In this document: piece by piece, positions 5,501 through 46,865 of the stretch
How the letters are laid out: every line of letters begins with the position of its first letter
How positions within the stretch are numbered: position 1 is the stretch's first letter
From: Heptranchias perlo
Lineage: Eukaryota
DNA: 64,000 nucleotides
Direction: 5' to 3'
NCBI RefSeq assembly: GCF_035084215.1
Contig: NC_090340.1
Location: 5,022,001-5,086,000 of the forward strand
Made by a program: the position numbers and the translations under genes
The notes under the pieces: generated by a model
What the model saw: the letters and a program-made list of their open reading frames with translations, nothing else
Told to the model about the DNA's origin: nothing
The model's database searches: none

Positions 5501-5559
5501 CTCCTCCAACTCTTTAGTCCACTTCAACCCCTCACTCCCCTTCAACTTTCACTCTACTA

Positions 5560-6075: not shown

Positions 6076-8459
6076 CTTTCAATCCCTAACACTCCTTCAA
6101 ACCTTCGCTTCGCTTCAATCCCTCACCCTTCAGTCCCTCACTCCTCAAACCCACAATCTCCTTCATTGCCACACTCAACTGCACTCCCATACTTCTCCTC
6201 AATCCCTTTCAATGCCTAACTTTCCTTAAATCCCTTCACCACCTCATTCCTTTCCAATCTCTGACTCCTTTAAATCAATTAACCTCTTCAGGCCCTCACA
6301 TCTTTTCAATCACTCCCTCACTTTTGATCCCTAACTACCCTTCAATCCCTAACGTGCCCTGAATACTGCATACACATCAATCCTTCACTCTTCAACTCCT
6401 CACCCCCTTTCCATCCCACATTCCCTTTCAGCCCTTCACGGTACTTCAATCCCCAACACCCCTTCAATCATTCCTTTCCCATAAATCCCTCACTCCCCTT
6501 CAATGCCTCACTCCACATCAAACACTCACTCTTCAATTCCTCATTCCCTTTCAATCCCTTACTACACTTCACCCCTCACTCGCCTTCAATCCCACACTCC
6601 CCGTCAGTCTCACACTGTAATTCAATCGCTCACTGTTCTTCAATTGTTCATTCCTCTTCCTTTCTTCACCCCATTCAGTCGCTCATTTCTCTTCAAACTC
6701 TAACTCACCTTCAATCCCCCAATCCCCTTCAAACAGTCACACCCCTTCAGTCCCTCACACCTGATCCCTCAATCTGCTCCAATCCCTCACTCAACTTCAA
6801 TCCATCACCCCGCCACAATCCCTCACTCCCTTTCAATCCCAAACTTCCCTTAAATCACTCACTCTCCTTCAATCCCTCACTCGCCTTCAATACTACACTC
6901 ACCTTCAGTCCCCAGTGCACTTCAATCCCTCCGTTCCTTTCAGACCCTCATTCCTTTGAGTCCCTCATTCCTCTTCAATCCCTCACTACCCTTCAATCCC
7001 TCACTACCCTTCAATCGCTCACGCCCCTTAAGCCCCCCCACTCCCCTTTAATGCACCACTTTCTGTCAATCTGTCAAACATCTTTGATCCCTCACTCCGC
7101 TTCAAACCATCACTTGCCTTTAACCCCTCACTCTTACATCCCCAACATCCCTTCAATCACTCATTGCCCATAAATCCCTCGCTCCCCATCAATCCCTCAC
7201 TCCCCTTCAATCCCTCACTCCCCTTCAATCCATCACTCCATTTCAAACCCTCACCGCTTCATTCCCTCACTCCCCTTCAATCCCTCACTCCCCTTCAATC
7301 CCTCACTCCATTTCAAACCCTCACCGCTTCAGTCCCTCACTTCGCTTCAATCCCTCACTCAGCTTCAGTCCCTCACTAACCTCTATTCTCTCACTCCAAT
7401 TCAATCCCTCACTCTCCTTCACTCTCTGACACTTCTTCAATCCCTGACTCCCCTCAAATCCCTCACTCCATTTTAGCCCCCAACTCCGCTTCTGATCTAC
7501 CTGGATAGGTCAGGTTGTATTGATTGCTTATCTGTAATGTAATCTCTAGACAGTTGTATTATAAGTAAAATGACTGTCGAATGTAATGTTGAGGACAGTT
7601 GTGGTGCAACTCTGTTGGCTGTCAGTCTATTAAACTTGCTATTTTAAAGCCAACTCGGGCCAGAATCAAGCGGAGGTTATTGTTGATGGGTTAGCAACCC
7701 ATAGTTGAGATAGTAACGGGAGAAAATCTGCTAACAACTGAGGATAGATCACTAATTTCACATCCCACACCATCTCAGGCCTCAGGACAGGTAGAGATAG
7801 AAAATCGTACCATCAAAACGATGTTTGAAAAGGTAGTTGAAGAGTCAGGAAAATGTTAGGATTTTAATGGTTAAAATTATGACTAATTTTAATTAGGACT
7901 GAAAGGTAGTGTGGGATGGAAAGGGAGTGAGGGGTTGAAGAGTGAAGGATTGAACCCCTGATTTTAATGGTTATCCGGAGGAATGTCGCCTCAAGCACGG
8001 GGGTAAAACCATCTGAAGCAATGACAGGTCGCCCAATGCGGCTACCAGAGCACCTTTTCAATACACCCATGACAGAATTACAGAAGAAGGCAGCGACCAC
8101 ATAACAGTGGGTGCATGTAGGGGAAGTATACGGGCAGAGAGCAGGATCGAGTGGTCAGAATCAGAAGATGCAGCTGTACTTTAATAAAGGCGCAGCGCCC
8201 GTAAAGTATAAAGTGGGCGATCGTCTGAAAATTACAACAGACTTGCGAAGACAAATCTTTTCCCAAACCCATATGGGGAGGCCCCCGGTTTACTGTACAG
8301 AAAGCGAGCTCCAGTTTATCGAATGCGTTTAGACAATGGTAGTCAGGCACTGATAAATGGCGCCACCATGTCCAGCTGAAAACATTTAAAGGTTCCGTGA
8401 AAAAAACTCATCAGGGGTTCTTGGAACCGGCGAAGGTTTTACTTTTGGTCTTTTCCAGG

Positions 8460-21849: not shown

Positions 21850-24800
21850 AGAGAACATAAGAACATAAGAAATTGGAGCAGGAGTAGGCCAATCGGCCGC
21901 TCGAGCCTGCTCCGCCATTCAATAAGATCATGGCTGATCTGATCCCAACCACAAATCTAAAGAACACAAGAAGTCGGAGCAGGACCCGGCCACATAGCCC
22001 CTGGGCCCTCTCCGCCACCCACAGGGCATTGACCGATCCGAACTCAGCTTCATGTCCAATTTCCTGCCCGCTCCCCATAACCCCGAATTCCCTTTACTTC
22101 TAGGAAACTGTCTATTTCTGTTTTAAATTTATCTAATGATGTAGCTTCCACAGCTTCCTGGGGCAGCAAATTCCACAGACCTACCACCCTCTGAGTGAAG
22201 AAGTTTCTCCTCATCTCAGTTTTGAAAGAGCAGCCCCTTATTCTAAGATTATGCCCCCTAGTTCTAGTTTCACCCATCTTTGGGAACATCCTTACTGCAT
22301 CCACCCGATCAAGACCCTTCACAATCTTATATGTTTCAATAAGATCGCCTCTCATTCTTCTGAACTCCAATGAGTAGAGTCCCAATCTACTCAACCTCTC
22401 CTCATATGTCCGCCCCCTCATCCCCGGGATTAACCGAGTGAACCTTCTTTGTACTGCCTCGAGAGCAAGTATGTCTTTTCTTAAGTATGGAGACCAAAAC
22501 TGTATGCAGTATTCCAGGTGCGGTCTCACCAATACCTTATATAACTGCAGCAATACCTCCTTGTTTTTATATTCTATCCCCCTAGCAATAAAAGCCAACA
22601 TTCCGTTGGCTTTCTTGATCACCTGCTGCACCTGCATACCAACTTTTTGATTTTCTTGCACTAGGACCCCCAGATCCCTTTGTACTGCAGTACTTTCCAG
22701 TCTCTCGCCATTAAGAAAATAACTTGCTCTCTGATTTTTCCTGCCAAAGTGCATAACCTCACATTTTCCAATATTATATTGCATCTGCCAAATCTCCGCC
22801 CACTCACCCAGCCTGTCTATATCCCCTTGCAGGTTTTTTATGTCCTCCTCACTCTCTACTTTCCCTCCCATCTTTGTATCATCTGCAAATTTTGATATGT
22901 TGCACTCGGTCCCCTCCTCCAAATCGTTAATATAGATTGTAAAGAGTTGGGGACCCAGCACCGACCCCTGTGGAACACCACTGGTTACTGGTTGCCAGTC
23001 CGAAAATGAACCATTTATCCCAACTCTCTGCTTCCTGTTCGATAACCAATCCTCCACCCATGCCAGAATATTACCCCCAATCCCGTGATTTTTTATCTTA
23101 AGTAATAATCTTTTATGTGGCACCTTGTCGAATGCCTTCTGGAAGTCTAAATACACTATGTCCACTGGTTCCCCTTTATCCACCCTATACGTTATATCCT
23201 CGAAGAACTCAAGCAAATTTGTCAGACATGACTTCCCCTTCATAAAGCCATGCTGACTTTGTCCTATTAAATTATGCTTATCTAAATGTTCCGTTACTGT
23301 CTCCTTAATAATAGACTCCAAAATTTTACCCACCACAGATGTTAAGCTAACTGGCCTATAATTTCCAGCCTTCTGCCTACTACCCTTTTTAAATAACGGT
23401 GTTACATTAGCAGTTTTCCAATCTGCCGGGACCTCTCCTGAGTCCAGGGAATTTTGGAAAACTATCACCAAAGCATCCACAATCCCTACTGCCACTTCCC
23501 TCAAGACCCTAGGATGGAAGCCATCAGGTCCAGGGGATTTATCCGCCTTGAGTCCCATTATTTTACTGAGTACCATCTCCTGAGTGATTTTAATCGTATT
23601 TAGCTCCTCCCCCCCGAGAGTCCCCTGTTTGTCCAGTGTTGGGATATTCTTAGTGTCCTCTACTGTAAAGACTGAAACAAAATATTTGTTCAGCATTTTT
23701 GCCATCTCCATGTTTCCCACCATTAATTTCCCGGTCTCATCCTCTAAGGGACCTATGTTTGCCTTAGCCACCCTTTTTCTTTTTATATAACTATAGAAAC
23801 TCTTGCTATCTGTTTTTATATTTTTTGCTCATTTCTTTTCATAATCTAACTTCCCTTTCTTAATCAATCCTTTAGTTACTTTTTGCTGTCTTTTGAAGAA
23901 TTCCCAATCTTCTATCCTCCCACTAAGTTTGGCTACCTTATATGTCCTTGTTTTTAGTCGGATACCATCCTTGATTTCTTTACTTAGCCACGGATGGCTG
24001 TCATTTCTTTTACACCCTTTTTTCCTCAGTGGAATATATTTATTTTGAAAGTTGTAAAATAACTCCCTAAATGAACACCACTGCTCATGCACCGTCTTAC
24101 CCTTTAATCTATTTTCCCAGTCCACTTTAATCAATTCCGCTCTCATACCATCATAGTCTCCTTTATTCAAGCTCAGTACGCTTGTTTGAGAATCAACCTT
24201 CTCACCCTCTAATTGGATATGGAATTCAACCATGTTGTGGTCGCTCGTTCCAAGGGGATCCTTAACTAGGACATTATTAATTAATCCTGACTCATTACAC
24301 AGGACCAGGTCCAAGGTTGCCTGCCCCCTTGTAGGATCAGTTACATACTGCTCAAGAAATCCATCCCTGATGCACTCAATGAACTCGTCCTCAAGGCTGC
24401 TCTGCCCAATTTGATTTGTCCAGTTAATATGATAATTAAAATCCCCCATAATTATGGCTGTTCCCTTATTACATGCCCCGACTATCTCCTGATTAATACT
24501 TCTTCCAGCAGAGTTGCAACTATTAGGAGGCCTATATACTACGCCCACTAATGTTTTTTTTCCCTTATTATTCCTTATCTCCACCCAAACTGTTTCATTA
24601 TCTTGATGCTTTGTCCCAATAGCATTTCTCTGTATTACAGTGATTCCTTCCTTTATTAACATAGCCAGCCCACCTCCCCTTCCTTCCTGCCTGTCCTTCC
24701 TGATTGTTAAATACCCTGGCATATTTAATTCCCAGTCGTTGTCACCCTGCAGCCATGTTTCTGTAATGGCCACAAGATCATACCCATACGTAGTTATTTG

Positions 24801-24910
24801 TGCCGTTAACTCGTCCATTTTATTACGAATGCTACGTGCATTCAGATAAAGAACTTTCAAATCTGTTTTGTGACGCTTAGTTCCTGCTTTTTCCTTTTTT
24901 AACACTTTAC
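21850..24910 (-). mobile_element. Near-intact CR1 LINE ORF2 (APE endonuclease + RT) with a single premature stop
   Basis: ORFs 23829-24905 and 22050-23771 are in the same frame, separated by one TGA; YLNARSIRNK, MGDFNY, SDHN, FADD; (TTCTTATG)n tail. Confidence 0.96.
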
Positions 24911-25759
24911 CAAAAGTCTATCCATATCTCTACCGTGAATATACTCAACGACTTAGCATTTTAAGAGGCTTAAATAATAAAAAAAAAACTTTTGGTGGGA
25001 GGACCGTGTTTGGTGATAGTGCTGAACCATGGAGAGGCTAGCCAATGAGATGGGCTGGTAGGTATTGCTGGAGACTGCAGTGTTTGAATTTGGGCTCCGT
25101 GGAGAATTGAACTGGAGGAGATAGTGATGGAGGCAAAGGCTGTGTGATTGGAAGTCAGCAAAGATCATGTGGAGCACATGGCAATAACAGATAGATGGAA
25201 GCAAAGAAGTTTACATGCAAGTTACACAACGGAAAGAGGCCGTTCGGCCCAACCAGTACATATCGGCGTTTATCCTCCACGCAAGCAAATCGTCCTAATC
25301 ATAGTTACCCGCCCTGTTACCAGATCCCTTCACCCCCCTCTTCTCCAATGTTTTCATCAGCAGAGTGCCAGAGGTGCATAAAATAGGCATGAAGATGCCA
25401 GTAATGGTCAAAGTGTCGTTGCCTGACAGCCCATGAATTTTGTAACTAATGTGATCAGAATGATTTTACCCAAAAGTTATGTGTTTTTTTTAACAAAGTT
25501 TGAGTTATTATTTTGCATTTCTGCGGCTAAAGCCCAATTTGGTTGCTGAATTGTGTCAGCTGGTTTAGGTAGTAGAAACTTCAACATAAGTGCGGGTTCT
25601 CGGAGCAGTTTAGCCAGCCACATATCAGTGTCCAGCTTATCTCTGCTCCAATTTGAATCTGTAATGAATTTAACTAAAGATTTTGTTGCTAACAGCAGCT
25701 TTGCAAAAGCATTCTCATTATATTAATTCCGGTAACATTCTGCTGCGACTGCAATTTTA

Positions 25760-29139: not shown

Positions 29140-29636
29140 GGCACTTTGCTAGAGCAATCCAAAACTAATCTCACTGGCCTGCTCCATTCCCGTAGCCCTG
29201 TATCAATCCTAAACTAACCCCACTAACCCGCACCCTCCCCATAGCCCTGCATCAATCACAAACTAGTCCCACTGCCCAATTCTTTACGTTTAGCCCAATA
29301 TTGTTTCAAAATTAATTCCAATGAGACGCTCTCCCGATAGTTCTCCATCAACCCCAAGCTAATCCCAATGTTCCATCCTTTCCCCATAGCCCTATATCAA
29401 TCCAAAACTAACCCCAATGCCCCACTCTCTGCCCATAGTCGTGTATCAATCCAAAACTAATCACACTGTCCCCACTTTCCCCATAGCCATGTATCAATCC
29501 CATACTACTGCTGCTGCTCCGCTCTCACCCCTTAGCCCTGCATTAATTCAAAACTAATTCCACTGCCCTGCTCTCCCCTCATAGCCCCTGTCAATCCAAA
29601 ACTAACTCCACTGCATGGATCAATCCCCATAGCTCT
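29140..29636 (+). repeat. ~43-bp tandem repeat (ATCAATCCAAAACTAATCCCACTGCCC..CCCCATAGCCCTGT); resumes at 43081-43285
   Basis: About 11 diverged copies; the array is split by the LTR element. Confidence 0.85.
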
Positions 29637-30326
29637 TGTCACAGAGTTCTACCATCTCGTAACCTTCTCCATACGACAAACGATAATCCTTGACCAATTC
29701 GTAATTCAAAACACTTGTCTTTTAATTCACTCCACAAAAACATCAGACTGCAATACCTTTGGCAACGCCTAGTACACTTCCCAGTCCACGGTACCTTTGG
29801 CAACGCCTATTACACTATCAAAATCGCAGGCTTTTTCAGCTGTCTGAAGCTGCCTTGCAACTGCCCTCAACTGCCTTTTAGCTGATCAGCTTCTTTACAG
29901 GTCTCTGAGCCTAGGCCAGCCCCAGCTGCCTTCCAGCTTAATCTTTAGAGACTCTTTCCGCGACCGATGTGCACCGCTGGGACTGGAGTGCATCCTGGAT
30001 TGTTATAATAAAATTATTATTTGACACTTATTTTGGGTTTATTGATTTACTGCACATAAACACACCCTAAAAAAAAGAAAGAAAAGAAAACTAGACGAAC
30101 TTCAAAAAAAATCTTTAGAGACTCTGTTCAGGGGTGGACCCTTTACTTCTCTCCACATTTCCATTTATTCCGACCTGATTGGGAAGGTCTCCACCGACTC
30201 CAGCCATAATTCTTACTTAAAGGTGAAGTCTCGTAAAAGAGCTATATCCCTCCTCTTAGAAGGGAGGTCTCCTTAAAAGGGCCAAACCCTTATTCGGCAA
30301 TCAGGGTCATTAGTTACACTGCTACA
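29637..30326 (-). repeat. 3' LTR of the gene-capture element
   Basis: Colinear with 42477-43080; on minus it is preceded by the purine tract GGGGGGCGGGGGGATG (~30330-30345). Confidence 0.88.
29956..30110 (+). mobile_element. 5'-truncated Tx1/L1-like LINE end inside the LTR
   Basis: 15-bp TSD ATCTTTAGAGACTCT; FRDRCAPLGLECILD C-terminus; A-rich tail; a similar GGGACTGGAGTGCATC end lies at ~21580. Confidence 0.7.
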
Positions 30327-30864
30327 AATCATCCCCCCGCCCCCCAGCATAGATCCATTGGCTCTAGTGGCCTGCGTTGCGAAGCAGTACGCTCTGGAGA
30401 GGGCATGGAGTATTCTCCTGAGCCTTCCTGGCTCCATGCCCAATAATTGCCGTCTCAATCATTTCACCAAGCTCTAGCTGCTAATTTTCCATGCCCAATG
30501 GACATGTCCCTTCGGCTATTTCAAAGGCCTTTGACGCACCGTCCGAGTTTCCCATCTTTCCTTTTCATGCAGAATCCAGCATCTTCCTTTCACAAGGGTG
30601 CTCACTCCGGATTTTAGCCGTGGAAATTTCCTGCTCGTGTCTGTCGTCTTGTATTTCTGGTGTAACCATCTGTTTGTGGAAGGACATGATCCGACCTGAC
30701 GATAGCCTAATCTTTCAAGCCTTCTTCTCAGTAAAGGAGTATTCTTCATTTTGGCTCTTTCCAAGCTCAATTCATGTGGTCTCTTTTCCAATGCACTTTC
30801 GAAAGACTGCTGGTAGGTGTGTGTGTGTGTGTGGTGGGGGAGGGTCCCGGTGGAGTGAAATCTA

Positions 30865-33860
30865 GAACGCTAAAGAGAAAATACAAAGAAATAGTGCAGG
30901 AAAGTGACTGGGGTAAGGATAACCAGTTTGTGTCAGGAAGGGACAGAGCATACAATCAAAAGAGTGCACTAACAAATAGGGTCCGGATAAGGAAAAAATG
31001 CTAAGAAGACAAATAGGGCCACAGTACAAAAATAATGTTAAGATGTCTAAAAATAATAAGGTGGATGAATTAACAGAGCAAATAGATGTAAACGAATATG
31101 ATATAATTGCAAATACAGAGACATGGCGGCAGGGTGACCAAGGCTGGGAGCTGAATATCCAAGGGTATTCGATATTTCGGAAGGACAGGCAAAAAAGGAA
31201 AACAGGTGGGGCGGCATTGTTCGTTGAGGATGAAATCAGAGCTAAATGAGGAAGGATATTGGCTCAGAAAATCAAGATGTACAATCAGTCTGGGTGGAGT
31301 TAAGAATCACTAAGAGGCAGAAAACATTGGTGGGAGTTGTCTGTAGGCCTCCAAACAGTAATGTAGGGGACGACATCAAACAGGAAATTAGATATGCATG
31401 TAACAAGGCTATTACAGTAATCATGGGTGACTTTAATCTACATATAGACTGGCCAAACCAAATTAGCAATAATACTGTGGAGGATGAATTCCTGGAGTGT
31501 GCACAAGATGGTTTTTTAGACCAGTACGTTGAGAAGCCAACCAGGGAACAGGCTATCCTAGATTGGGTATTGTGCAATGAGAAGGGATTAATTAATAATC
31601 TTGTTGTGCAGGGTTCTTTAGGGAAGTGTAACCAAAATATGATAGAATTCTTCAGTAAGATGGAAAGTGAAGTAGTCCAATCCGAAACTAGGGTCCTAAA
31701 TCTAAACAAAGGAAACTACGAAGGTATGAGGAGTGAGTTGGCTATGGAAGATTGGGAAGCTTCATTAAAAGGCATGACGGTGGATAGAAAATGGCTAACG
31801 TTTAAGGAACGAATGTATGAATTGCACCAATTATACATTCCTTTCTGGCACACAAACACAAAAGGAAAAGCGGCCTAAAATTGGCTAACAAAATAAATTA
31901 AGGATAGTATTAGATCCAAAAAGGAGTCATATAAAGTTGTCAGAAAAAGTAGCAAGCCTGAGGATTGGGAACAGTTTAGAGTTCAGCAAAAAAGGACCAA
32001 GAGATTGATTAAGAGGGGAAAAACAGAGCATGAGAGTAAACTTGCAAGGAACATAAAAGCGGATTGTAAAAGCTTCTACAAGTATGTGAAAAGAAGAAAA
32101 AAAGATTAGTGAAGACAAATGTAGGTCACTTACAGTCAAAAACGGGAGAATTTACAATGGGGAACAAGGAAATGGCAGAGCAATTAAACAAATACTTTGG
32201 TTCTGACTTCACGGAAGAGGACACAAATAACTTCCCAGAAATGCTAGGGAACCAAGGGACTAGTGAGAAGGAGGAATTAAAAGAAATTACTATTAGCAAA
32301 AAATAGTGCTGGAGAAATTAATGGGACTGAAAGCCAATAAATCCCGAGGTCCTGATAATCTGCATCCCAGAGTACTAAAAGAGGTAGCCATGGAAATAGT
32401 GGATGCATTGGTTGTCATCTTCCAAAATTCTGTAGTTTATCGTACAGTTCCTACAGATTGGAGGGTGGCAAATGTAACCCCACTATTTAAAAATGGAGAG
32501 AGAGAGAAAACAAGGAACCACAGACCGGTTAGCCTAACATCAGTAGTAGGGAAAAATGCTAGAGTCGATTACAAAGGATATGATAATACGGCACTTAGAG
32601 AATATCAAAGGGATTAGACAATTTATGAAAGTGAAGTCATGTTTGACAAACCTAATGGAGTTTTTGTGGATGTAACTGGTAGAATAGATAAGGGAGAACC
32701 AGTGGATGTGGTTTATTTGGATTTTCAGAAGGCCTTTGATGAAGTCCCACATAAGAGATTAGTGTGCAAAATTAAAGCACATGGGATTGGTGGTAATATA
32801 ATGGCATGGATTGAAAATTGGTTAACAGGCAGGAAACAGTGAGTAGGAATAAATGGGTCTTTTTCGGGATGGCAGGCAGTGACTAGTGGGGTATCGCAGG
32901 GATCAGTGCTTGGGCCCCAGATATTTCACAATATTAATCAATGATTTGGATGAGGGAACCAAATGTAATATTTCCAAGTTTGCTGACGACAAAAAATATG
33001 TGGAATCATGACTTCTGAGGAAGATGCAATGAGACTTCTAGGTAATTTAGACAAGTTGAGTGAGTGGGCAAATACATGGCAGATGCAGTAAATGTGAATT
33101 TATCCACCTCGGAAGGAAAAAGAGAAAGGCAGCCTATTATTTAAATGGTGATAGATTGGGAAATGTCGTTGTACACCAGTCACTGAAAGCAAACATGCAG
33201 GTGCAGCAAGCAGTTAGGAAGGCAAATGATATGCTGGCCTTCATTGCAAGAGGATTTGAGCATAGGAGCAAGGATGTCTTACTGCAGTTATACAGGGCCT
33301 TGTTGAGACCACATCTGGAGTATTGTGTGCAATTTTGGTCTCCTTATCGAAGAAAGTATATACTTGCCACAGAGTGAGTGCACGGAAGGTTCACCAGACT
33401 GATTCGTGGGATGGCAGGACTGTCCTATGAGGAGAGAATGGGTCGAGTCGGACTGTATTCACTAGAGTTTCGAAGAATGAGAGGGAACCTCATTGAAACA
33501 TATAAAAATCTGACAGGGCTAGACAGCCTGGCTGCAGGGAGGTTTTTCCCCTGGCTGCGGGCGTCCAGAAGAAGGGGTCACAGTCTAAGGATAGGGGGTC
33601 GGACATTTAGGACTGAGATGAGGAGAAATTTCTTCACTCAGAGGGTGAGAAAGCTGTGGAATTCTCTACCACGTGAGGCTGTGGTGGCCAAGTCACTCAA
33701 TATATTTAAGAAGGAGCTAGATAGATTTCAAGACACAAAGGCATCAAGGGGTATGGGGAGAAAGCGGAAATATGATAGAGGATCAGCCATGATCATATTG
33801 AATGGTGGATCAGGCTCGAAGGGCCGAATGGCCTACTCCTATTTTCTATGTTTACATATC
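30865..33860 (+). mobile_element. Decayed CR1 LINE ORF2 (EN + RT) nested in the LTR element
   Basis: VIMGDFNL, GPDNLHPRVLKE, VYLDFQKAFD, RPHLEYCVQFW. Confidence 0.93.
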
Positions 33861-36800
33861 CCATCATAAACAGGCTCATCCAATGGACCACCAAAGATAG
33901 GCGCATGGGAAGGAGTATCCAATTGCTTCCTGGTCTGGAGCGGATTTCTTTTTCTCTTTCCAGTGCTTAACAACCTCTTTTCCTGTTATATCTTTGGACT
34001 TTTCCTCCAATCCTTTCCCCATGTATCCCTTTGACATCGGGGTCTATAGATGTGGAACTCTCCTGCACACACTGCATTCGATCCCATAAGATCGTGAACA
34101 AATCCTGGTGGTGGCCAAGGATCATATTCTTTGGATTTCTCAGAGATTGGAACTTGTTTCTCGGAGTTTCTCATTAACTGCCCCAGCTCCTGCTGCTGCT
34201 CCTCGGCCACACTGCGCAGGATGATGAGCAACTGCGTCGACTTTTCCGACAGTGAGCTGATGGTTTACATTCTCCATTTTGCAGTAAAAACTCTTCACTC
34301 CACATGATTCCAGCGGTTTGCGCCTGCCCATCAATTTGGTCCATCTGACTCTTCTGCGGGTTTTTCCCTTGCTCTTTATTCCTATTCCCCCAGAGGAATC
34401 CCTGTTCTCGTGGTCCTTACTTGGCCTCTGGAGTGCTGATTTTACTTGGCACCCTTCAATTCACGATTTAATGGAGGCCCAATCTCCATGGTTTGCACTC
34501 TTGGGTCAACTACTTCAACACCTATTCCCAAAGACTAATTTCTCTCCACCAATTTCTTTGATTTTGCGTTCAGCCAACCCACCTTCAAACTGCTCCACTC
34601 TGGAACTCTGCAGCTTTTGCACATCAAGAGAAGAGCCGTTTTCATTGACCACAAGATGAATCTCTGACAAGCTACCAGCTGTAGCTTCAATGGCAGCCTT
34701 TGTAATAGCAGCTGTAGCTTCTCAAGGGCAATTCGGGATGGGCAATAAATGCCGGCCTCGCCAGCGACGCCCACATCCCATGAACGAATAGAAGATCACC
34801 GGTCCATGCACAGCGCCTGCATTAGGCTTAGCGGGTTGTAGAACCTAATGTACAGCAGTTAATTCTGGAATCTCTATCTCCATAGATAATACAAACTCTG
34901 CAATAAATTAATGGAGTATTTAAATTTAGTTAATTAAAATAAAATCTGTAATGAAAAGCTAGTATCAGTAATGGTGACCATGAAACTACCGGATGTTGTA
35001 AAAACCCATCTGGTTCACTAATGTCCTTTATGGAAGGAAACCTGCCGTTCTTGCCCAGTCTGGCCAATATGTGACAACTGACCCACAGCAAAGTGATTGA
35101 TTCTTAACTGCCCTCTGAAATGGCCTAGAAAGCCACAATGTTGTACAGTCCTGCTACAAAAAGACATAAGAATAAAACCAAACAGAACATGCTGCAACGG
35201 ACCACTAAGCACCGGACAGAACAAAGGCTAACCCAGCCCAGTCGACCCTGCAATGTCCTCCTCATTAAAATCTGGGGACTTGTGCCAACATTGGGAGAGC
35301 TGTCCCACAAAATAGTCAAGTAACAGCCTGACGTAGCCATACTCACAGAACCATAACTTTCAGCCAAAGTCCCAGACTCCTCCATCACCAACGCTGGGTA
35401 TGTCCTGACCCACCGGCAGGACAGACCCACCAGGGCTGGTGGCACAGTGATATACAGTCAGAAGGGAGTGGTCCTGGGAGTCTTCAGCATGGACTCAGGA
35501 CCCCATGAAGTCTCATGGCATCAGTTCAAACATGGGCTCGGAAAATCTCGTGCACATCACCACCTACCAACCTCCCTCAGCTGATGAATTAGTCCTCTTC
35601 CATGTTGAGCACCACTTGGAGGAAGCACTGAGGGTAGCAATGACAGAATGTATTCTGGGTGGGGGACTTCAATATTTATCATCAAGAATGGCTCGGTAGC
35701 ACCAATACTGACCGAGCTAGCAGAGACCTGAAGGACATAGCTGCCAGACTGGGCCTACGGCAGGTGTTGAGAGAAACAACACGAAGGAAAAACCTAGTTG
35801 ACCTCGTCCTCACCAATCTATCTGTCACAGATGCATTTTTCCATGACATTATTGGTAGGATAGACCAACGTACAGTCCTTGTGGAGACGAATTCCCGAAT
35901 TCACATTGAGAACACAATTCATCGTGTTGTGTGGCACGACAACCGTGCTAAATGGGATAGATGCAAAACGGAATAAGCAGCTCAAAACTGGGCATCCATG
36001 AGGCGCTGTGGGCCATCAGAAGCAGCAAAATTGTATTCCACCACAATGTGTAACCTCATGGCAGGACATATATCACATACTACCATTACCAGCAAGCCAG
36101 GGGTTCAACCCTGGTTCAATAAGCAGTGTCGACGAGCATGCCAGGAGCAGCACCAGGCATACCAAAAAATGAGGTAACAACATGGTGAAATTACAACGCA
36201 GGATTACATGCATGCTAAACAACAGAAGCAGCATGCTAGAGACAGAGCTAAGCAATCCCACAATCAACGCATCAGATCAAAGCTCTGAAGTCCTGTCACA
36301 TCCAGTCGTGAATAGTAGTTGACAATTAAGCAACTAACGGGAGGAGGCGGGTCAGTGAGAAGCCCCATCCTCAATGATGGCAGACCGAGCACATGAGTGC
36401 AAAAGTCAAGCCTCAAGTGTTTGCAACCTCTCCAGCCACAAGTGCTGAGTGGATGATCCATCTTGGCCTCCTCCCGAGATCCCCACCATCACAGAAGCCA
36501 ATCTTCAGCCAATTTGATTCACTCCACGTGATATCAAGAAACGGTTGAGTGCTCAGGGTACAGCAAAGGCTACGGGCCCCAACATCACGGCTGTAGTGCT
36601 GAAGACCTGTGCGCCAGAACTAGCCGCACCTCTAGCCAAGCTATTCCAGTACAGATACAAAACTGGCATCTGTCCAATAAAGTGGAAAATTGCCCAAGTA
36701 TGTCCGGTACACACAAAGCAGGACAATTCAAATCCGACCAATTACCGTCCCATTAGTCGACTCTCAATCATCAGCAAAGTGATGGAACGTGTCGACAGTG

Positions 36801-37474
36801 CTATCAAGCTGCACTTACTCACTAATAACCTGCTCACCGATGCTCAGTTTGGGTTCCGCTAGGACCACTCGGCTCCAGACCTCATTACACCCTTGCCCCA
36901 AACATGGGCAAGGGCTGACTTTCAGAGGTGAATTGAGAGTTTCTGACCTTGACATCAGTGCAACATTTGACCAAGTGTGGTATCAAGGAGCCCTAGTAAA
37001 ATTGAATCAATAGGTATCAGGGGGAAAGCTTTCCATTGGCTGGAGTCAGACCTAGCACAAAGGAAAATGGTAGTGGCTGTTGGAGTCCAATCATCTCAGC
37101 CCCAGCACATTGCTGCAGGAGTTCCTCAGTGCAATGTACTAGGCCCAACCATCTTCAACTGCTTCATCGATAAACTGCCCTCCAAGCTAAGGTCAGAAAT
37201 GGGGATGTTTGCTGATGATTGCACAGTCTTCAGTTCCATTCACAACCCCTCAGATAATGAAGCAGTCCGTGCCTGCAAGCAGCAAGACCTGGACAACATC
37301 TAGGTTTGGACTGATGTGTGAAGCAAATGTTACTTGGCACTTAAATGCCAGGCAATGACCATCTCCAATAATGTATAGATGCCGGTGATGGACTGGTGTG
37401 TTCTTTGGTCGGATCTGCGGGTAACCGTCTGTAGTGTTCCTGGTTGTCCAGTTGTCGGTATGCTTCTTGAAGAC

Positions 37475-39181
37475 ACCCACCAGCTCAACCAACTGATCAA
37501 GACCTTCGATCCAGACCTTCAAAGCATCCTACGCACTCTCATCCCACGTACTCCCCGCGTGGGAGACTTCTACTGCCTCCCAAAGATACACAAAGCCAAC
37601 ACACCCGGACGTCCTATCGTATCAGGCAACGGAACCCTGTGTGAGAACCTCTCTGGATACATCGAGGGCATCCTGAAACCCATCGTACAGGGAACCCCCA
37701 GCTTCTGTCGCGACACTACAGACTTCCTACAAAAACTCAGTACCCACGGACCAGTTGAACCAGGAACACTTCTCACCACGATGGACGTCTCGGCACTACA
37801 CACCAGTATCCCCCACGATGACGGCATCGCTGCGACAGCATCAATACCCAACACCAATAACAGCCAATCTCCGGACGCCATCCTACAACTCATCCGCTTC
37901 ATCCTGGATCACAATGTCTTCACCTTCGATAACCAGTTCTTTACCCAAACACACGGAACAGCCATGGGGACCAAATTCGCACCCCAATACGCCAACACTT
38001 TCATGCACAAGTTCGAGCAGGACTTCTTCACTGCACAAGACCTCCAACCAACACTATACACCAGATACATCGACGACATTTTCTTTCTATGGACCCACGG
38101 CAAGGAATCACTAAAGAGACTACACGATAACATCAACAAGTTCCATCCCACCATCAAGCTCACCATGGACTACTCCTCAGAATCAGTTTCTTTCTTGGAC
38201 ACACGAATCTCCATCAAAGACGGGCACCTCAGCACCTCACTCTACCGCAAGCCCACGGACAACCTCACGATGCTCCACTTTTCCAGCTTCCACCCTAACC
38301 ACGTCAAAGAGGCCATCCCCTATGGACAGGCCCTGCGAATACACAGGGTCTGCTCAGACGAGGAGGAACGCGATGGACACCTACAGACGCTGAAAGACGC
38401 CCTAGTAAGAACGGGATATGACGCTCGACTCATCGATCGACAGTTCCGACGGGCCACAGCAAAAAATCGCATAGACCTCCTCAGGAGACTAACACGGGAC
38501 GCAACCAACAGAGTACCCTTTGTCGTCCAGTACTTCCCCGGAGCGGAGAAACTACGCCATGTTCTCCGCAGCCTTCAACATGTCATCAATGAGGACAAAC
38601 ACCTCGCTATGGCCATCCCCACACCTCCACTACTCGCCTTTAAACAGCCACCCAACCTCAAACAGACCATCGTTCGCAGCAAATTACCTAGCTTTCAAGA
38701 GAACAGCGTCCACGACACCACACAACCCTGCCACGGTAACCTCTGCAAGACGTGCCAGATCATCGACACAGATACCACCATCACACGAGAGGACACCACC
38801 CACCAGGTGCACGGTTCATACTCCTGTGACTCGGCCAACGTTGTCTACCTCATACGTTGCAGGAAAGGATGCCCCAGAGCATGGTACATTGGCGAGACCA
38901 TGCAGACGCTGCGACAACGGATGAACGGACACCGGACAACAATCGCCAAACAGGAGGGTTCCCTCCCAGTCTTGGAACACTTCAGCAGTCATGGACATTC
39001 ATCCACCGACCTTCGGGTAAGCGTACTCCAAGGCGGCCTTCGAGACACACGACAACGCAAAATCGTCGAGCAGAAATTGATAGCCAAGTTCCGCACCCAT
39101 GAGGACGGCCTCAACCGGGATCTTGGGTTCATGTCACGCTACACGTTACCCCACCAGCGAACAAATGTTATCTGTTTTTAA
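37475..39181 (+). CDS. Penelope RT + GIY-YIG endonuclease (N-terminally truncated, otherwise uninterrupted)
   Basis: FYCLPKIHK, GRPIVS, GTAMGT, RYIDDIF, VVYLIRC...WYIGET...RMNGHR. Confidence 0.92.
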   Translation, partial: THQLNQLIKTFDPDLQSILRTLIPRTPRVGDFYCLPKIHKANTPGRPIVSGNGTLCENLSGYIEGILKPIVQGTPSFCRDTTDFLQKLSTHGPVEPGTLLTTMDVSALHTSIPHDDGIAATASIPNTNNSQSPDAILQLIRFILDHNVFTFDNQFFTQTHGTAMGTKFAPQYANTFMHKFEQDFFTAQDLQPTLYTRYIDDIFFLWTHGKESLKRLHDNINKFHPTIKLTMDYSSESVSFLDTRISIKDGHLSTSLYRKPTDNLTMLHFSSFHPNHVKEAIPYGQALRIHRVCSDEEERDGHLQTLKDALVRTGYDARLIDRQFRRATAKNRIDLLRRLTRDATNRVPFVVQYFPGAEKLRHVLRSLQHVINEDKHLAMAIPTPPLLAFKQPPNLKQTIVRSKLPSFQENSVHDTTQPCHGNLCKTCQIIDTDTTITREDTTHQVHGSYSCDSANVVYLIRCRKGCPRAWYIGETMQTLRQRMNGHRTTIAKQEGSLPVLEHFSSHGHSSTDLRVSVLQGGLRDTRQRKIVEQKLIAKFRTHEDGLNRDLGFMSRYTLPHQRTNVICF

Positions 39182-39414
39182 TATAACGGGTCAGTTGCTG
39201 TCTTTTCTATGTTTCTACCTCTCTATCTCTGTTTTTTTTTGTTTGTTGTTTTTTTTTGGTGATTTGTATATTCTGAGACCTGGCAGGTAACACCTGTCTG
39301 TCTGCACACTGATTGCCTTGGCAACGGGCAGTTGAAAAAACTGTCTGTAATCACCAAGCATTGTTCTGTGAATTATAAATGCGATTTCATTTCGAGGATT
39401 TCATTTTCACATCG

Positions 39415-39453
39415 TTCACCTGACGAAGGAGGAAGCCTCCGAAAGCTTGTGAA
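39415..39453 (+). ncRNA. Minimal type I hammerhead ribozyme in the Penelope pLTR
   Basis: TTCAC-CTGACGA-A-GGAGG-AAG-CCTCC-GAAA-GCT-T-GTGAA: helix I TTCAC/GTGAA, CUGANGA and GAAA cores, palindromic AGCT helix III. Confidence 0.8.
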
Positions 39454-40589
39454 TTTAAAATAACATCTCCAATAAGACAGCGTCTAACCACCTCCTCACG
39501 ACATTCAACATCATTACCATCGCTGAATCCCCCACCACCAACATCCTTGGGGTTACCATTGACAAGAAACTTAACTGGACCAGGCACATAAATATAGTGG
39601 CTAGAAGAGCAGATCAGAGGCTGGGTATTCTGTGGCGAGTGACTCACCTCCTTACTCCCGAAAGCCTTTCCACCATCGACAAGGCACAAGTCAGGAGTGT
39701 GATGGAATACTCACCATTTGCCTGGATGAGTGCAGCTCCAACAATACTCAAGAAGCTCAACACCATCCAGGACAAACCTTAATTGACACCCCATCAACCA
39801 CCCTAAACATTCACTCCCTTCACCAACGGTGCACAGTGGCTGCAGTGTGTCCCATCTACAAGATGCCCTGCAGCAACTCGCCAAGGCTTCTTCGACAGCA
39901 CCTCCCAAACCCGCGACCTCTAGCATCTAGAAGAACAAGGGCAGCAGGCACATGGGAATAACACCACTTGCACGTTCCCTTCCAAGTCACACACCATCCT
40001 GACTTGGAAATATATTGCCGTTCCTTCATCGTCGCTGGGTCAAAACCCTGGAACTCCCTCCCTAACAGCACTGTGGGAGAACCTTCACCACACGGACTGC
40101 AGCGTTTCAAGAAGGCGGCTCACCACCACCTTCTGAAGGGCAATTATCGATGGGCATTAAATGCTGGCCTTGCCAGCGACGCCCACATCGCATGAATGAA
40201 TAAAATAAATATATTTCAACCCATCGTTGTCCTTTCCCTCTGAACCTCTCTTTGTCGAGCACCCTCCTCACGAAGCCTCTTTGCCTCTATTGATCTCTTG
40301 CTCTCTTTTTCCAGCCGTCCAATAGTCCCCTGGCAGGAAGTAAATTCCTTGCAGGATCTAGTTATTCCGAGGACTCTGCTCGAGACCAACCACCATGTTC
40401 CTGTACTCTTTCAAGTTGCCTCTAATCTTCTTGAGCACTGTCAGTGGGTCAGAAAAATCAGTCTGCCGTTTTGCAGATCCTTCCATCTGTTCATCGTTGG
40501 ATTGGTTCCTTTGACCTTCAGTCATCTCTCACTTCTATTGAAGAGTTAAAACCGAATCAACCTGGGTTTCACAGATGATTGGAGGCTCT

Positions 40590-41165
40590 GGTTTTGAGAG
40601 GTCAGCACCGCAACCTTGGTGTCCAACTCTTGCACCTTCTGTGCCAGCTTGTTCCTCTATTGCTCTTCGAGGCCCATCTGATTACTTTCCAAAGACTTCA
40701 TCTGTTTAGTGAGCATTTCGAGTTCAGCTTCCTTCTCAACTTTCAATGTATCATACTGCCTACCCACAGAAGCCTTCTCATTGCACATCGGTTCCGTCTT
40801 TTCCTTCAGAGTGGACACTTGCTGCAACTTGCTCTCTCTTTCGGCTTCCAGTTCTCTCTCAAAACTTAGCATTGCATCCTCTTTAGCCCTCAGGGCTCCC
40901 TCGTTGGTCTCCCTATTCCAGCGTAGATCGACGGCAACTTGCTAGGCCGCCCGCTGTTTACTTTGCGAGTCTTCCACCAGCACATGCCTCAGTTTCTTTT
41001 TTTCCCTCCAGATCCACGTTCAATGCGTTGACCTGTCCAGCCAGCCTTTCCTCCTCAATCTACGCAGCTTGCTCGAGCAGCTCCTTCTGATCAACCGTCT
41101 CGTTGACTGACTGCTGGAGGCTGGCGATGGTTGTGGTTAGCTGGCTTTTCTCTTCCTTGTGAAGT
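40590..41165 (-). pseudogene. NUMA1: NUMA1-like coiled-coil fragment within the LTR element
   Basis: HKEEKSQLTTTIASLQQSVNETVDQKELLEQAA*IEEERLAGQVNALNVDL resembles NuMA EEEKQQLSSLITDLQSSISNLSQAKEELEQASQAHGARLTAQVASL; LKVEKEAELEML and KLAQKVQEL also match (from memory). Confidence 0.65.
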
Positions 41166-41635
41166 GCTTTCATGGCCTGCAGGTTGACCTCCAGGCAGAG
41201 CTCAGTATCTTCGATGCCCTGCCGCTTGTTGGCCCGCTCCTCCAACTGGTCCTCATCTCTGCCACGTGCTGCTCCAGCGGTCTCTTCACCTTCTCCAGCT
41301 CGCGCACGCTCTTGCCCACAAGCTCCATGGCACTCATCACGTCCTCCCTCTTGGTCCGATGCTGCTTGTTGAGGCTGTCGAGCTCCTCATGTAGCTCGCA
41401 GACGTGACTTACCAGCACCCATCTCTTTTCACTATTCGCCAACTGAGCCTACAGGGACACCACCTGCTGCTTCTCTTTCAGCCTCTTCCCCTTCTCCTCC
41501 TGGAACAGTGACTGGGTTTCGTTTAGATAGGACTCCAGACTCGACACTACCTTGGCCAGTTTGATGGCTTTGGACTCGGTCCTCCCCAGAGCTCCGGTGG
41601 CCTGTTCCAGCTCAGCCTCCAATTTGAGGACCTGA
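41165..41635 (-). pseudogene. MYH9: Non-muscle myosin II (MYH9-like) tail fragments, intron-less
   Basis: ESKAIKLAKVVSSLESYLNETQSLFQEE and [46 protein letters not shown](fs)LEE...[17 protein letters not shown] match MYH9/10/11 rod segments. Confidence 0.85.
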
Positions 41636-41659
41636 TGCATGCCATTTTCTCCCTGACTT

Positions 41660-42340
41660 ACCACATAAGCACATGTCACTGATCTCCCCCTCATCCTGGA
41701 AAAAAGCCTTCTACAGGACTTTTCTAGTAAGAATGGACTTCCTATAACTTCCTCGGAGACACTTTCTGGACTTCTCCATCTCCTCAGAATGGGCGTAGGT
41801 TTGCTGAAAATTTCCGGTATGCTCCACCAGCAGCTCACTCCAATAGGCTTCCGCTACAGTACCCTCTGTGAATGTGTAATTTTACTTACCCTCAACGTAA
41901 TGTTGGCCACCATCATTTCTTTACAAAGTTCCCAGAACAGAAAGTGTTTGGCAAAAGAATTAAAGGTGACATGAGGAAAAACTTTTTTACACAGCATGTG
42001 GTTAGGATCTGGAATGCACTGCCCGACGTGGTGATAGAGGCAGATTCAATCATGGCCTTCAAGAGGGAACTGGATAAGTACTTGAGAGAAAAAAAATGCA
42101 GGGCGACGGGGATAGGGCGGGGGAGTGGGACTTGCTGGATTGCTCTTGCATCGAGCCGGCGCGGACACGATGGGCCCAACGGCCTCATTCCGTGCTGTAA
42201 CCTTTCTATTATACTATGATTCTAACTCGTCCCCATCATGATCCTCGTTTAGGACATCGACTTCCTTCTCCACAATATCTTGCTTATCGTACACAGCGCG
42301 TTGCTTCCTGTCGCTCAGCAACGCCTGTCCTTTACCAGGA
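41660..42340 (-). pseudogene. DNAJC9: DNAJC9-like fragment (end of J-domain and following region), split by a CR1 insertion
   Basis: GKGQALLSDRKQRAVYDKQDIVEKEVDVLNEDHDGDE|FWELCKEMMVANI versus [44 protein letters not shown]; also EAYW..NFQQTYAHSEE in a shifted frame. Confidence 0.75.
41939..42223 (+). mobile_element. CR1 3' end inserted in the DNAJC9-like segment
   Basis: MRKNFFTQHVVRIWNALP and tail; short AAC duplication at the junctions. Confidence 0.85.
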
Positions 42341-42456
42341 CTCTTGCTGGGCGTCACGGATCAGGAACCAATTGGTCCTCTCTTGAGCGCACAACAATTC
42401 TTCGAGTGTTTCCTCCATACTGGGTTGGTATTTTTCTTTTCTCTCTTAGAGACACG

Positions 42457-42474
42457 TTCCCACTTCTGACAACA
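42457..42474 (-). other. Primer binding site, tRNA-Leu
   Basis: The + strand reads CCCACTTCTGACAACA, matching the tRNA-Leu 3' end CCCACTTCTGACACCA with 1 mismatch, 2 nt from the LTR end. Confidence 0.85.
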
Positions 42475-42476
42475 TA

Positions 42477-43080
42477 TGTCACAGAGTCCTATCATTTTGT
42501 AACCTTCTTCAGATGACAAACGATAGACCTTTACTAATTCGTAATACAAAACAATTGCCTTTTGATTCATTCCACACACAGTCACACTACGGTAACGTTG
42601 GCAACGCCCAGTACACTTTCCCACTCCACCGTACTCTTGGCAACGTCCAGTACACTTTCCCATTCCATGGTGCCTTTGGTAACGCCTAATACACTTTCCC
42701 AGTCCATGGTACCTTCAGCAATGCATTTTACACTTTCCCAGCCACAGGCTCTTTCAGTTGTCCGCAGCAGCGTTGCAACTACTTTCAACGGCCTTTCTGT
42801 TCATCAGCTTCTATCCAGGTCTCAGGGCCCAGGCCAGCCCCAGCTACGTTCGGGCTTCCTCTTCAGGGGCTCTGTTTAGGGGTGGCCCCTCTACTTCTGC
42901 CTCTCGATCTCTCCCTTTTACTCTCAACTGACTGTGGAACGTCTCCACCCACCCGAGTATTAATTGCTTCTTAAAGGTGAGGTCTCTTAAAAGGACCATA
43001 CCCCTCCTCTTAAAGGAGAGGTCTCCTTAAAAGGGCCATACCCTTATTCGGGGATCAGGGCCCTCAGTTACACTGCTACC
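42477..43080 (-). repeat. 5' LTR of the gene-capture element
   Basis: Colinear with 29637-30326; contains about 5 copies of a ~34-bp internal repeat. Confidence 0.88.
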
Positions 43081-43404
43081 CGCTGTATCGATTGAACAAA
43101 AATGTCAATGTCCCGGTCACTCCCCATAGCTTTAATCAATCCCAAAAGAATCTCACTGCCATATTCTGCCCCCATCGCCCTGTTTCAATCCCAAACTAAT
43201 CCCATTACCCCGCTGTTTCGCAAAGCCCTGTATCAATCGTAAACTTATCCCAGGTCCCGCTGTTTCCCCAGAGCCCTGTATCAACAGCTTGCATTTATAT
43301 TGCACTTTTAACGTAAGAAATCCGAAGGCGCTTCACACTAGCTTTATCAGACAAAATTGGACACCGAGCCAAATGAAGAGATATTAGGACAGGTGACTAA
43401 AAGC

Positions 43405-43715
43405 GCTGGGAATGTGTGATGGGACAGCATAGCGGAAGCTTTACTCTGTAGCTAACACATGCTGTACATGTCCTGCGAGTGTTTAGTGGGACACTGCAGA
43501 TGGAGCTTTACTTTGAATCTAACCTTTGCTGTATCTTCCCTGGGAGTGTTTGATGAGACGGTGTAGATGGAGGTTTACACTGTATCTACACTGTGCTGTA
43601 GTTATCCTGAATGTGTTTAATCGGACTGTGTAGATGGAGATTTTTTCTGTATCTAACTCGTGTTGTACGTGACGTGGGAGTATTTGATGGGATAGTGTAG
43701 AGGGAGCATTACATA
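43405..43715 (+). repeat. ~65-bp satellite (GGGACAGTGTAGAGGGAGCTTTACTCTGTATCTAACC...); also at 46325-46565
   Basis: 4-5 diverged tandem copies at each site. Confidence 0.85.
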
Positions 43716-44810: not shown

Positions 44811-46865
44811 GATTTGTGGGGGGGGGGGGGGGGTGCAGTGTACCCGAGAGGCGATAAATGAAAGAAGGCATGACCATAGGAAGGAGGGGTCTTGGAAAGT
44901 TAAAGAAAAAAGAAGAAAAAAGGGGAAATAGAAATGATGAGCTCGGGTCCCGAGCTGCATCCAAAACGATCACCCAAATGGAAACAGGGAAAATCAAGAT
45001 ACTTAGGCATGGTTATATAATAAGATTGGGATATATATGCCCTGGTAATCAACAGGGAATAGAGAAGAGAGAATAGGAAGGAGTCCAAGGCTAAAGTCAG
45101 ACGTCCCGTGGTGGGATAAAGTTGACGTTGATAGGTTGGAGTCAGCTTGGAGCATCGACGAACAGACGGAGATTCATCAAAGCACGACATAAAGTTGGTA
45201 TAAACACAACGGAAACATTACAATTAACGATAAATAAACAGTAGAAAGATCAGCATCTGAAAAAGAAAGCTAAGCTGAACTCTTGGATGGAACACCCCAT
45301 GGGGCCATTGATGTCCGATCCTATTGTGTTGTTCTACCATTTCCTAGTCTAATTTGAGACTGTCAGAACTGTCGGATTTTCCTTTATTTTCCCTATATAT
45401 TTAACACGGGTGGATATAGCTCGCAAGGTCCAGTAAAATGTTACATACAAAATCAGCATAATTTCGCTATTTGTTCCTTGAAATGATCCACGTTTTTTTT
45501 TTCCTTTTTGATTGGCTTACGCTTTTCGTTCTCTTTAGGTTTCCGTCTTCGGTTATAACCCACATCGACAGCAATCTATTTTGAACCGTCCCTTCCATAA
45601 TCTGTAAAATCAAAGCGTGCTTCTGACCTGGATTATTCAGCAGAGTGATGCATGGAACAGAGCGCGCTCCGCTGTAACGAAATTAAAGATTCAACAAATA
45701 TGTTATTTAAATTATGAATATATCAATATCGGTATATCATTATTGAAATTGCACAATCATATTCTGCACAATGATTGCTGACTGTTCGGAGCGTCACGGT
45801 GATGTGTGATAAAATGCCATTACAATCCTTTGAACTCAAATCATTCCTAGACACTGAAAAACAGTATAATTTTTATCTACACGGAGTGAGCAATTGTCTT
45901 GTGCCCACAATGTGTGCCTCAGGCACGGGTTGAATGACACACAAATAGGTGTTTTATGGATACTGAGATCATGAGAACTAGATAGCGCAGTGAACTCGTG
46001 CGTTGGACCTGGAGTTTGAGTGTAGCCTGTTCTGATGGATGACTCTCCATTTCTTGGCTCGTCTAGATCTAACTTGTCGTGCTGTGTTTTACAGCATCAA
46101 ATGTACAGTGGATTAAAAATCGTTATCGAAAAAATAGTAATCTAACTCAGAGAAGCCAGTGATGGGTCGGCCTGAGAGTGGGGATAATACGCACGGTCCA
46201 GTTGTCGTGTTTTTCATCAGTTGGAGCTTCAGGCATTTTCTTGAAGCAGAGTAACGGTTAATCAGTCTGTATGTAACTCTACTACACTAGACCTCAGGGT
46301 GTTAAATAAGGCAGGGTCGAGAAAGATCTACCCTGTATCTAACCAGTTCTGTATCTGTCCTGGGAGTGTTTGGCGGGACAATGTAGAGGAAGATTTACTC
46401 TGTATCCAATCCGTGCTGTAGCTGCACTGGGAGTGTTTGATGGGACAGTGTAGAGGAATATTTACTCGGTATATAAAACGTGATGTACCTGCTCTGGGAA
46501 TATTTGATGGAAAAGCGTAGACAGAGATACGTTAGCATCCATCCTTGCTGTACTCGATTGGGAACGTTTAAAGCCGGTACTGGGAATGATGAGAATTTGT
46601 TGATTTTGCTCAGTGGCCCCTCGTGCACATGAACATAAACATTTACCAACAAACGGAATGTACAAAATACGGGGTAATCGTGTAAGGCACAAATTTCAAA
46701 TATGCTGAGTTTTGGATCACATACTTCATACACTTCAAGCATTTTCGAAAATGTACGAGAGAAACGCACCCGTTCTTCGAAGTGTTGAGATCCCTCTTGG
46801 TCTCTGCCTGCGCCTAGTGAAATACAACATTTATCTTTGACCATAAATCAGGAAGTGAACCACCG

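Follow-up and report, generated by a model that had tools for sequence, protein, structure and literature searches.

The 64,000-nucleotide stretch of the Heptranchias perlo genome analyzed here (contig NC_090340.1, positions 5,022,001 to 5,086,000; hereafter the window, to which all unprefixed positions refer) contains a minus-strand long terminal repeat (LTR) retroelement. Between a gag start and a pol end, its interior is made up of approximately 17 pieces, all in sense orientation and free of introns, from seven named host genes: DNAJC9, PALB2, a non-muscle myosin II, NUMA1, AKAP12, PRKRIP1 and RALBP1. The element belongs to a dispersed and decayed family in which the reading frame seems to have been kept, but not the protein sequence. 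On balance, the family is probably best read as a parasite of a Gmr1-like Gypsy helper that took up pieces of host mRNA by repeated template switching and was selected for an open frame without constraint on its residues.

The first-pass annotation had described a chimera of three host mRNAs (DNAJC9, MYH9 and NUMA1). A chimera of several mRNAs within one LTR insertion was found, with seven named donors and not three; the whole 3' half, containing PALB2, AKAP12, PRKRIP1 and RALBP1 pieces, had been missed. The DNAJC9 segment was recovered by profile search (best E 1.7e-17; 7/7 matches were DNAJC9), and the host gene on C39 has five exons. NUMA1 was the sole match of its own search, with an E of 5e-38. 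The top database matches of the pieces were shark and ray proteins. Generic coiled-coil similarity was considered and rejected, since the pieces match their donors well above coiled-coil background. The AKAP12 host exon, L147, contains a 2,200-codon frame with WSK motifs; it was captured as five to six out-of-order pieces, which in the window carry two deletions of about 250 bp relative to sibling copies. The DUF1168 piece is taken here to come from the PRKRIP1 gene. The PALB2 host exon, L179, contains the ChAM peptide as printed in the accessible part of PMC9671498.

The donor of the myosin pieces is less certain. Two non-adjacent myosin-tail stretches are present, as first reported, and their best PDB match is MYH9. 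Three paralogous non-muscle/smooth myosin II exons (L172-L174) were found by protein search at the position of the second piece, which spans an intron position of host myosin genes. The identity of 41 copies to these exons was 71.4%, 66.0% and 72.7%, and private-site votes tied the first and third; because of these close identities and tied votes, MYH9 is not established as the donor against MYH10. A fourth paralogue, whose exon may be absent or unassembled, may have been the donor, because the identity (~72%) is lower than for the other pieces. Two short pieces of the chimera gave no donor, and for the piece at 34245..34444 no host exon was found among 89 scored candidates. Pfam scans did not detect the DNAJC9, NUMA1 or AKAP12 fragments, neither the PALB2-region fragment nor the L178 exon (a donor exon of sister subfamilies, see below) had a usable match in the ESM Atlas, and PDB searches gave no name for L179, L178 or the pol tail, the last queried in another frame.

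Capture from spliced RNA is indicated by the PRKRIP1 and DNAJC9 exons, which adjoin without introns at three exon junctions. Among the 65 loci examined, counting those that hold both exons, PRKRIP1 exons 1 and 2 were adjacent in 39/40, PRKRIP1 exons 2 and 3 in 43/43 and DNAJC9 exons 2 and 3 in 30/31. At five chimeric junctions the donor matches overlap by a median of 4-25 nt, and elsewhere by about zero or with a gap, as measured in old copies with no simulated baseline. The pieces are internal and partial, all in sense orientation, and abut one another without poly-A or target duplications of their own, as is characteristic of LTR-mediated retrocopies. The locus is rich in LINE (long interspersed element) insertions, as would suit independent LINE-driven processed pseudogenes landing in a pre-existing LTR element. 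Against this, the pieces are out-of-order coding fragments that lack poly-A and target duplications, and the idea, whose probability we regard as negligible, is refuted because identical junctions recur at dozens of unlinked loci.

The structure of the insertion is that of an LTR retroelement, with paired LTRs, a primer binding site (PBS), a polypurine tract and a short target duplication. The two LTRs are colinear, share 80.5% identity across 519 aligned columns and end in TG...CA. The PBS directly adjoins the 5' LTR in the window copy, and the tRNA-Leu assignment of the genomic gene that it matches is an ARAGORN call. The target duplication agrees at three of four bases here and is perfect at 4 bp in 6/12 full-length copies and 3/5 solo LTRs. 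These features uphold the earlier reading of a single minus-strand insertion with a tRNA-Leu PBS and a degenerate 4-bp duplication. The split satellite was likewise found on both sides, with a period of 48-49 bp instead of the 43 bp first given. All features are collected in Table 1.

Table 1. Features of the window element and its flanks (window positions, ordered along the element from its 5' LTR)
Feature	Position	Strand	Remarks
48-49-bp satellite, right flank	43137..43284	none	same satellite as left flank
5' LTR	42477..43080	-	39-bp repeat x3.6; matches found family-wide
tRNA-Leu PBS	42456..42474	-	complementary to tRNA-Leu gene L180 at 16/19 bases
ATG and first ~26 codons, gag-derived	42338..42418	-	ATG at 42418
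DNAJC9 exon-2 piece, J-domain end onward	42225..42337	-	77% to host exon on G000:C39
Nested LINE 3' fragment	41939..42223	+	missing from sibling copies
DNAJC9 exon-3 piece, limits approximate	41880..41938	-	translation; exon 2/3 adjacency
PALB2 piece, starts just past ChAM motif, 3' limit approximate	41625..41773	-	80% to host exon L179
Myosin II rod piece 1	41485..41634	-	PDB MYH9 residues 1274 onward; Pfam Myosin_tail_1 427-497
Myosin II rod piece 2	41166..41400	-	Pfam 646-731; host exons L172-L174 start within piece
NUMA1, four rearranged pieces of its large exon	40235..41171	-	75-89% to host exon L167
Nested LINE with second nested element inside	34910..40214	+	600-aa reverse transcriptase frame 37379-39181
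AKAP12 pieces	34445..34909	-	80-87% to host exon L147
LINE tail, 72 bp	34723-34794		interrupts AKAP12 pieces
Piece without matched donor	34245..34444	-	common to all subfamilies; lies next to PRKRIP1 on its 5' side
PRKRIP1 (DUF1168), exons 1-3 joined without introns	33999..34244	-	Pfam; host exons L148/L149
RALBP1 piece, 5' part	33871..34008	-	host-gene match
Nested LINE	30820..33870	+	splits RALBP1 piece in two
Remainder of RALBP1 piece and two further AKAP12 pieces	30462..30819	-	
Pol-derived tail and family stop codon	30364..30445	-	stop common to 68% of copies
Polypurine tract	30329..30345	-	purine run preceding 3' LTR
3' LTR	29637..30326	-	later insertion at ~29945-30115
48-49-bp satellite, left flank (target site)	29155..29614	none	

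Both ends of the interior retain remnants of a parent element. The PBS, leader and ATG align to the SCAN-gag elements L175 and L176, with 71-79% across 70-128 nt in the window subfamily and 79-85% across 190-280 nt in subfamily C, which agrees with the earlier description of the ATG as gag-start-like. The gag-start protein match of the window subfamily is weak. With a sister-subfamily start as the query, elements alike over the first 40 codons only were found; 2/3 of those fetched run into a SCAN-domain gag, and the third runs into AKAP12 instead. In the Gmr1 gene order, RNase H is the last domain of pol. Scoring of 150 out of 1,793 candidates gave 55 tail loci; at eight of these, the homologue of the tail lies directly 3' of an RNase H domain, 9-80 nt from the end of PF17917 as judged by coordinates only. 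The SCAN domain is given as confined to Gmr elements in the available text of PMC4131045; the chimeric element itself is without it, and it is present in the relatives L175/L176. No Pfam match to protease, reverse transcriptase or integrase was obtained in 12 window translations or in six sibling copies in three frames each, as the first reading of the interior had held. The scan of sibling copies gave no capsid domain, and the Pfam scans gave no env or retroviral domains. The homology of these remnants supports the view, guessed at first, that this non-autonomous element probably descends from a Gmr1-like Gypsy retrotransposon. Origin from an endogenous retrovirus (ERV) was rejected, the remnants matching SCAN-gag Gypsy elements and no env or retroviral domain being matched.

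The first-pass annotation had further suggested that the element spread as a family, and the same junctions do occur in dozens of copies. When the genome was searched with the LTR, 40 out of 386 candidates were scored and yielded 73 matches. For the interior segment 40215-41900, 40 out of 109 candidates were scored; all 40 matched, with 20 contigs represented and identities of 70-80%, the exceptions being the window itself and two copies at 91-92% on its own contig. The latter (G000:C18, ~3.45 Mb and ~4.24 Mb; L002, L003, L022, L023) are about 90% identical to the window region and are segmental duplicates, because their flanks and nested repeats are in common with the window. Uninterrupted copies are about 4.8 kb long. 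Block order was identical in 20/20 copies fetched whole, and all seven blocks were present in 12/20. The tree built from 38 copies has a star-like shape, with a mean tip of 0.105, a mean internal branch of 0.006 and a pairwise identity of 82%; LTR pairs have a median identity of 86% (12 copies). Rare variants are equally frequent at codon positions 1-3 (0.076, 0.068, 0.078), and about one stop per 100 codons was counted (45 copies). The star-like tree, the even distribution of variants and the stops indicate one old burst followed by neutral decay. Every copy examined is decayed, in a census that is incomplete.

Several loci depart from the common structure. At 2.98-4.62 Mb of G000:C2 (L015, L017), nearly identical sequences match the front of the LTR eight times; the two loci examined there hold the 3' end of the interior and a cut LTR, probably as a tandem or segmental array. 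Locus L097 (669-5900) is an LTR-interior-LTR-interior tandem whose middle LTR is common to both units. In one 3' LTR, the 39-bp repeat has grown to about 17 copies (L084, 5968-6684). Copies L099 (3127-4410) and L118 contain a longer colinear NUMA1 piece (~1.3 kb), which may reflect an older state of the element or a renewed capture from the donor mRNA. As for expression, no RNA data set was listed as containing the window copy. On one sibling copy (80% likeness), the long contigs of high depth cover stretches from one donor each, which is what host mRNAs would give, and a few contigs of low depth link LTR and interior or two donors (three runs presumed RNA, one DNA), where DNA carry-over is possible.

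The reading frame was analyzed in an alignment of 46 copies. This set excludes both segmental duplicates, a redundant locus, a locus shorter than 1,200 nt and 15 loci that belong to other subfamilies. The shared frame is about 1,330 codons long and has no internal stop common to the family. Within the first 1,790 nt, the frames of DNAJC9, PALB2, myosin and NUMA1 run in phase with one another and with the gag ATG. In the host frame, the most frequent shared stop reaches 0.38, up to the terminal stop some 40 nt short of the 3' LTR; the two alternative frames hold many stops shared at >80% of copies. In junction tests anchored to donor codons, the in-frame state was commonest in 15/17, three of the 17 being natural exon joins. 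Five chimeric junctions of subfamily C, tested in several copies, were all mostly in frame (4-7 of 6-7 copies). Of the indels shared across the family, 5/7 have lengths divisible by three, compared with 103/496 of the private ones. Source elements thus appear to have been under selection for an uninterrupted frame between the gag start and the end of pol, and not for their amino acids.

Such a frame could also have arisen without selection, if purine-rich coding sequences tend to join in frame and the source was too short-lived to gain stops. For most gene pairs, shared 6-10-mers are in frame at 0.44-0.80, in-frame open reading frames (ORFs) were given for 14/17 young fly retrocopies in the portion of Tan et al. 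(PMC5131818) available, and the family frame has four weak spots. The mechanics of joining help, but they are insufficient for ~14 chimeric junctions, because microhomology yields only 33-80% in frame; at 0.45-0.75 each, these junctions come by simple arithmetic to well under 1%. The source also diverged by 7-8% at the non-synonymous level with no stop becoming fixed, and its indels are mostly multiples of three. An origin without selection is hence considered improbable.

Changes on the source branch were polarised by the donor and a sister subfamily, the NUMA1, PALB2 and myosin pieces being outside this count. Non-synonymous and synonymous changes numbered 39/13 (pN/pS 0.84) and 43/13 (0.90), and similar counting of private decay gave a baseline of 0.74. 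Stops make up 5.4-5.8% of non-synonymous changes; at that rate the full frame should hold 11-15, and it has no shared stop. These values bear on the earlier proposal of a domesticated ORF, by which an LTR-flanked retrogene would encode a chimeric protein useful to the host and the dispersed copies would be its helper-mobilised offspring. The long shared frame would agree with this, as would a pN/pS of 0.48-0.59 among frequent variants and of 0.12-0.25 between family and host for the DNAJC9, myosin and NUMA1 pieces. The last ratios, however, include the host branch, and the polarised source branch is near neutral. In addition, no intact copy was seen; the longest stop-free frame at any family locus in the own-genome lists is 421 codons. 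No chimeric protein was found in searches of protein collections, which are length-limited and constitute weak evidence. Domestication is therefore unlikely, and it is also opposed by the presence of four or more subfamilies that differ in content and, in one case, in the LTR.

These subfamilies overlap in some junctions and differ in others. Subfamily B (4 loci) contains a longer DNAJC9, a piece of the gene of exon L178 and much AKAP12, without myosin or NUMA1; a CAF1-p150-like (CHAF1A-like) piece was present in 1/2 copies scanned. Subfamily C (7 loci) has the different LTR and contains the L178 gene, AKAP12, PRKRIP1 and RALBP1 through its RhoGAP and Ral-binding parts, with a PGM3-like piece in 1/3 copies scanned. 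The gene of exon L178 is presumably RSF1. D-type loci combine the piece sets of the other subfamilies. Common and private junctions across the subfamilies indicate stepwise capture and exchange. Two single loci may be recorded here: the D-type locus L152 (minus strand, ~2330-2700 of the element) has an extra coiled-coil piece with no donor named between its myosin pieces, and in L177 (1-901; G000:C11:56.6 Mb) a subfamily C start is fused to N-terminal AKAP12 pieces and followed by an inverted second start.

The content of the subfamilies raises the question of whether the protein served the element itself, as a coiled-coil or acidic polypeptide tagged with a Gag N-terminus that helped it to enter particles, to reach the nucleus or spindle, or to compete with the helper. 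The gag start is in frame in all subfamilies read, and the pieces are consistently charged, coiled-coil or acidic, with AKAP12 and PRKRIP1 re-used by different subfamilies. Low-complexity proteins may function under weak residue-level constraint. On the other side, pN/pS is near neutral, domains are cut mid-way (the J-domain end alone, ChAM excluded), content is swapped freely among subfamilies, and only ~26 gag codons without a capsid domain are left in the window subfamily. A role of this kind seems doubtful.

Selection for an open frame without residue constraint remains the favored account. By analogy with known retroelement biology (PMC5131818), pieces would have been gained stepwise through template switching during reverse transcription in helper particles of an autonomous element, and the subfamilies would have recombined with one another. 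One old burst carried copies to dozens of sites, where they have since decayed neutrally. As the likeliest reason for such selection, an early stop followed by a 3.5-kb untranslated tail might cause the RNA to be degraded or poorly packaged, so that host coding sequence would act as translatable filler.

Several observations weigh against this account. The packaging and decay reason is a proposal only, and the Gmr1-like helper is represented by relatives that were read in part. The column count of the alignment steps out of phase at four places, where the spacing is in frame in 16/27, 2/9, 6/14 and 7/17 copies; the commonest spacing length is a multiple of three at three of them and tied at the second. 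Because of these per-copy counts, two of the places rest on a plurality and the 2/9 place is undecided. Of the anchored junction tests that remain, one favors a shift (9/11/5) and one is a tie. One junction of subfamily B is out of frame in 3/3 copies, yet in frame in a related copy. Short words common to these coding sequences are in frame at 33-80%, mostly above the naive one third. The stop deficit is an extrapolation, since the pieces compared three ways would themselves be expected to hold only some two stops. Finally, the pN/pS of mid- and high-frequency variants cited above is a hint of some protein constraint.

Approximately 9 kb of the 13.4-kb window element consists of later insertions missing from sibling copies. 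The first-pass annotation had named nested CR1, LINE-A, Penelope and Tx1 elements, and matches to reverse transcriptase and endonuclease confirm that nested repeats are present. The LINE sequences at 41939..42223 and 30820..33870 are presumably CR1-like. The frame at 37379-39181 (+) is open over 600 codons with a Pfam RVT_1 match, and belongs to an element within a LINE within the LTR element; we take it to be Penelope-like. Outside the element, a young-looking LINE ORF2, which we also assume to be CR1-like, lies at 22050-24917 (-) in consecutive frames of 362 and 592 codons with one stop between. Arrays of a 67-bp satellite (43419-43712 and 46319-46507) lie beside the 48-49-bp satellite, and a degenerate 18-bp satellite occupies 1039-7469 in two arrays of ~170 and ~61 copies.

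LTR-mediated retroposition is already known; what is unusual here is the number of genes, the number of copies and the retention of frame. As far as the available text of Tan et al. 2016 (PMC5131818) goes, LTR-mediated retrocopies likewise have the internal ORF replaced by partial, sense, spliced mRNA pieces, sometimes from several parents, and undergo secondary retroposition; the mouse 'Super' retrocopy joins four genes and one repeat. Those cases are mostly single young loci, whereas the shark family has seven named donors, ~17 pieces, dozens of copies and several subfamilies, and preserved a single frame between the gag start and the end of pol while 7-8% non-synonymous drift accumulated. 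Maize Bs1, as covered in the accessible parts of PMC5131818 and PMC13317346, is also a non-autonomous LTR element with pieces of three unlinked genes, shared switch points and a hybrid ORF, but it exists in one to five copies in a plant host, with one of its three donors out of frame. The shark family is vertebrate and far larger, with more donors and with pieces in their own frames. Crocodilian ERVs with KIT-ligand or nectin3 mRNA (PMC4299795, portions available) are vertebrate LTR captures that later replicated to nine and six copies. They mostly keep the retroviral backbone and carry one whole gene each under purifying selection on the protein; in the shark family the Gypsy backbone is nearly gone, the fragments are many and no residue-level constraint was seen. 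Gmr1-like Gypsy elements share homologous PBS, leader, gag start and pol end, the 4-bp target duplication and TG...CA LTRs; in contrast, the shark element lacks capsid, protease, integrase and reverse transcriptase and is incapable of autonomous movement. No prior description was found in full-text literature searches, whose scope lies outside subscription papers, supplements (e.g. those of Tan et al.) and repeat libraries. An existing Repbase/Dfam-type entry, or closer fish examples in the supplements of Tan et al., are possible.

In the literature searched, multi-gene LTR chimeras are rare and low-copy, with three or four donors. The present family shows the process recurring over a long time in a vertebrate, and because each subfamily offers dozens of datable copies, the order of capture, the switch points and the type of selection become measurable. 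Copies of this kind are liable to mis-annotation as paralogues or pseudogenes of myosin, NUMA1, AKAP12, PALB2 or RALBP1. A frame that is kept while its residues drift distinguishes the need for translation from the need for a particular protein, which bears on why non-autonomous elements retain ORFs and on how chimeric genes begin. More tentatively, and with slightly less than even confidence, these elements may represent LTR parasites without genes of their own that have persisted for long as a lineage in vertebrates, selected for end-to-end translation and not for any particular protein. Such a lineage would act as an engine of in-frame exon shuffling, having drawn on at least ten host genes in at least four subfamilies, each amplified, with chimeric ORFs of 1,000-plus codons under an LTR promoter, and some member might have been domesticated in H. 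perlo or another cartilaginous fish.

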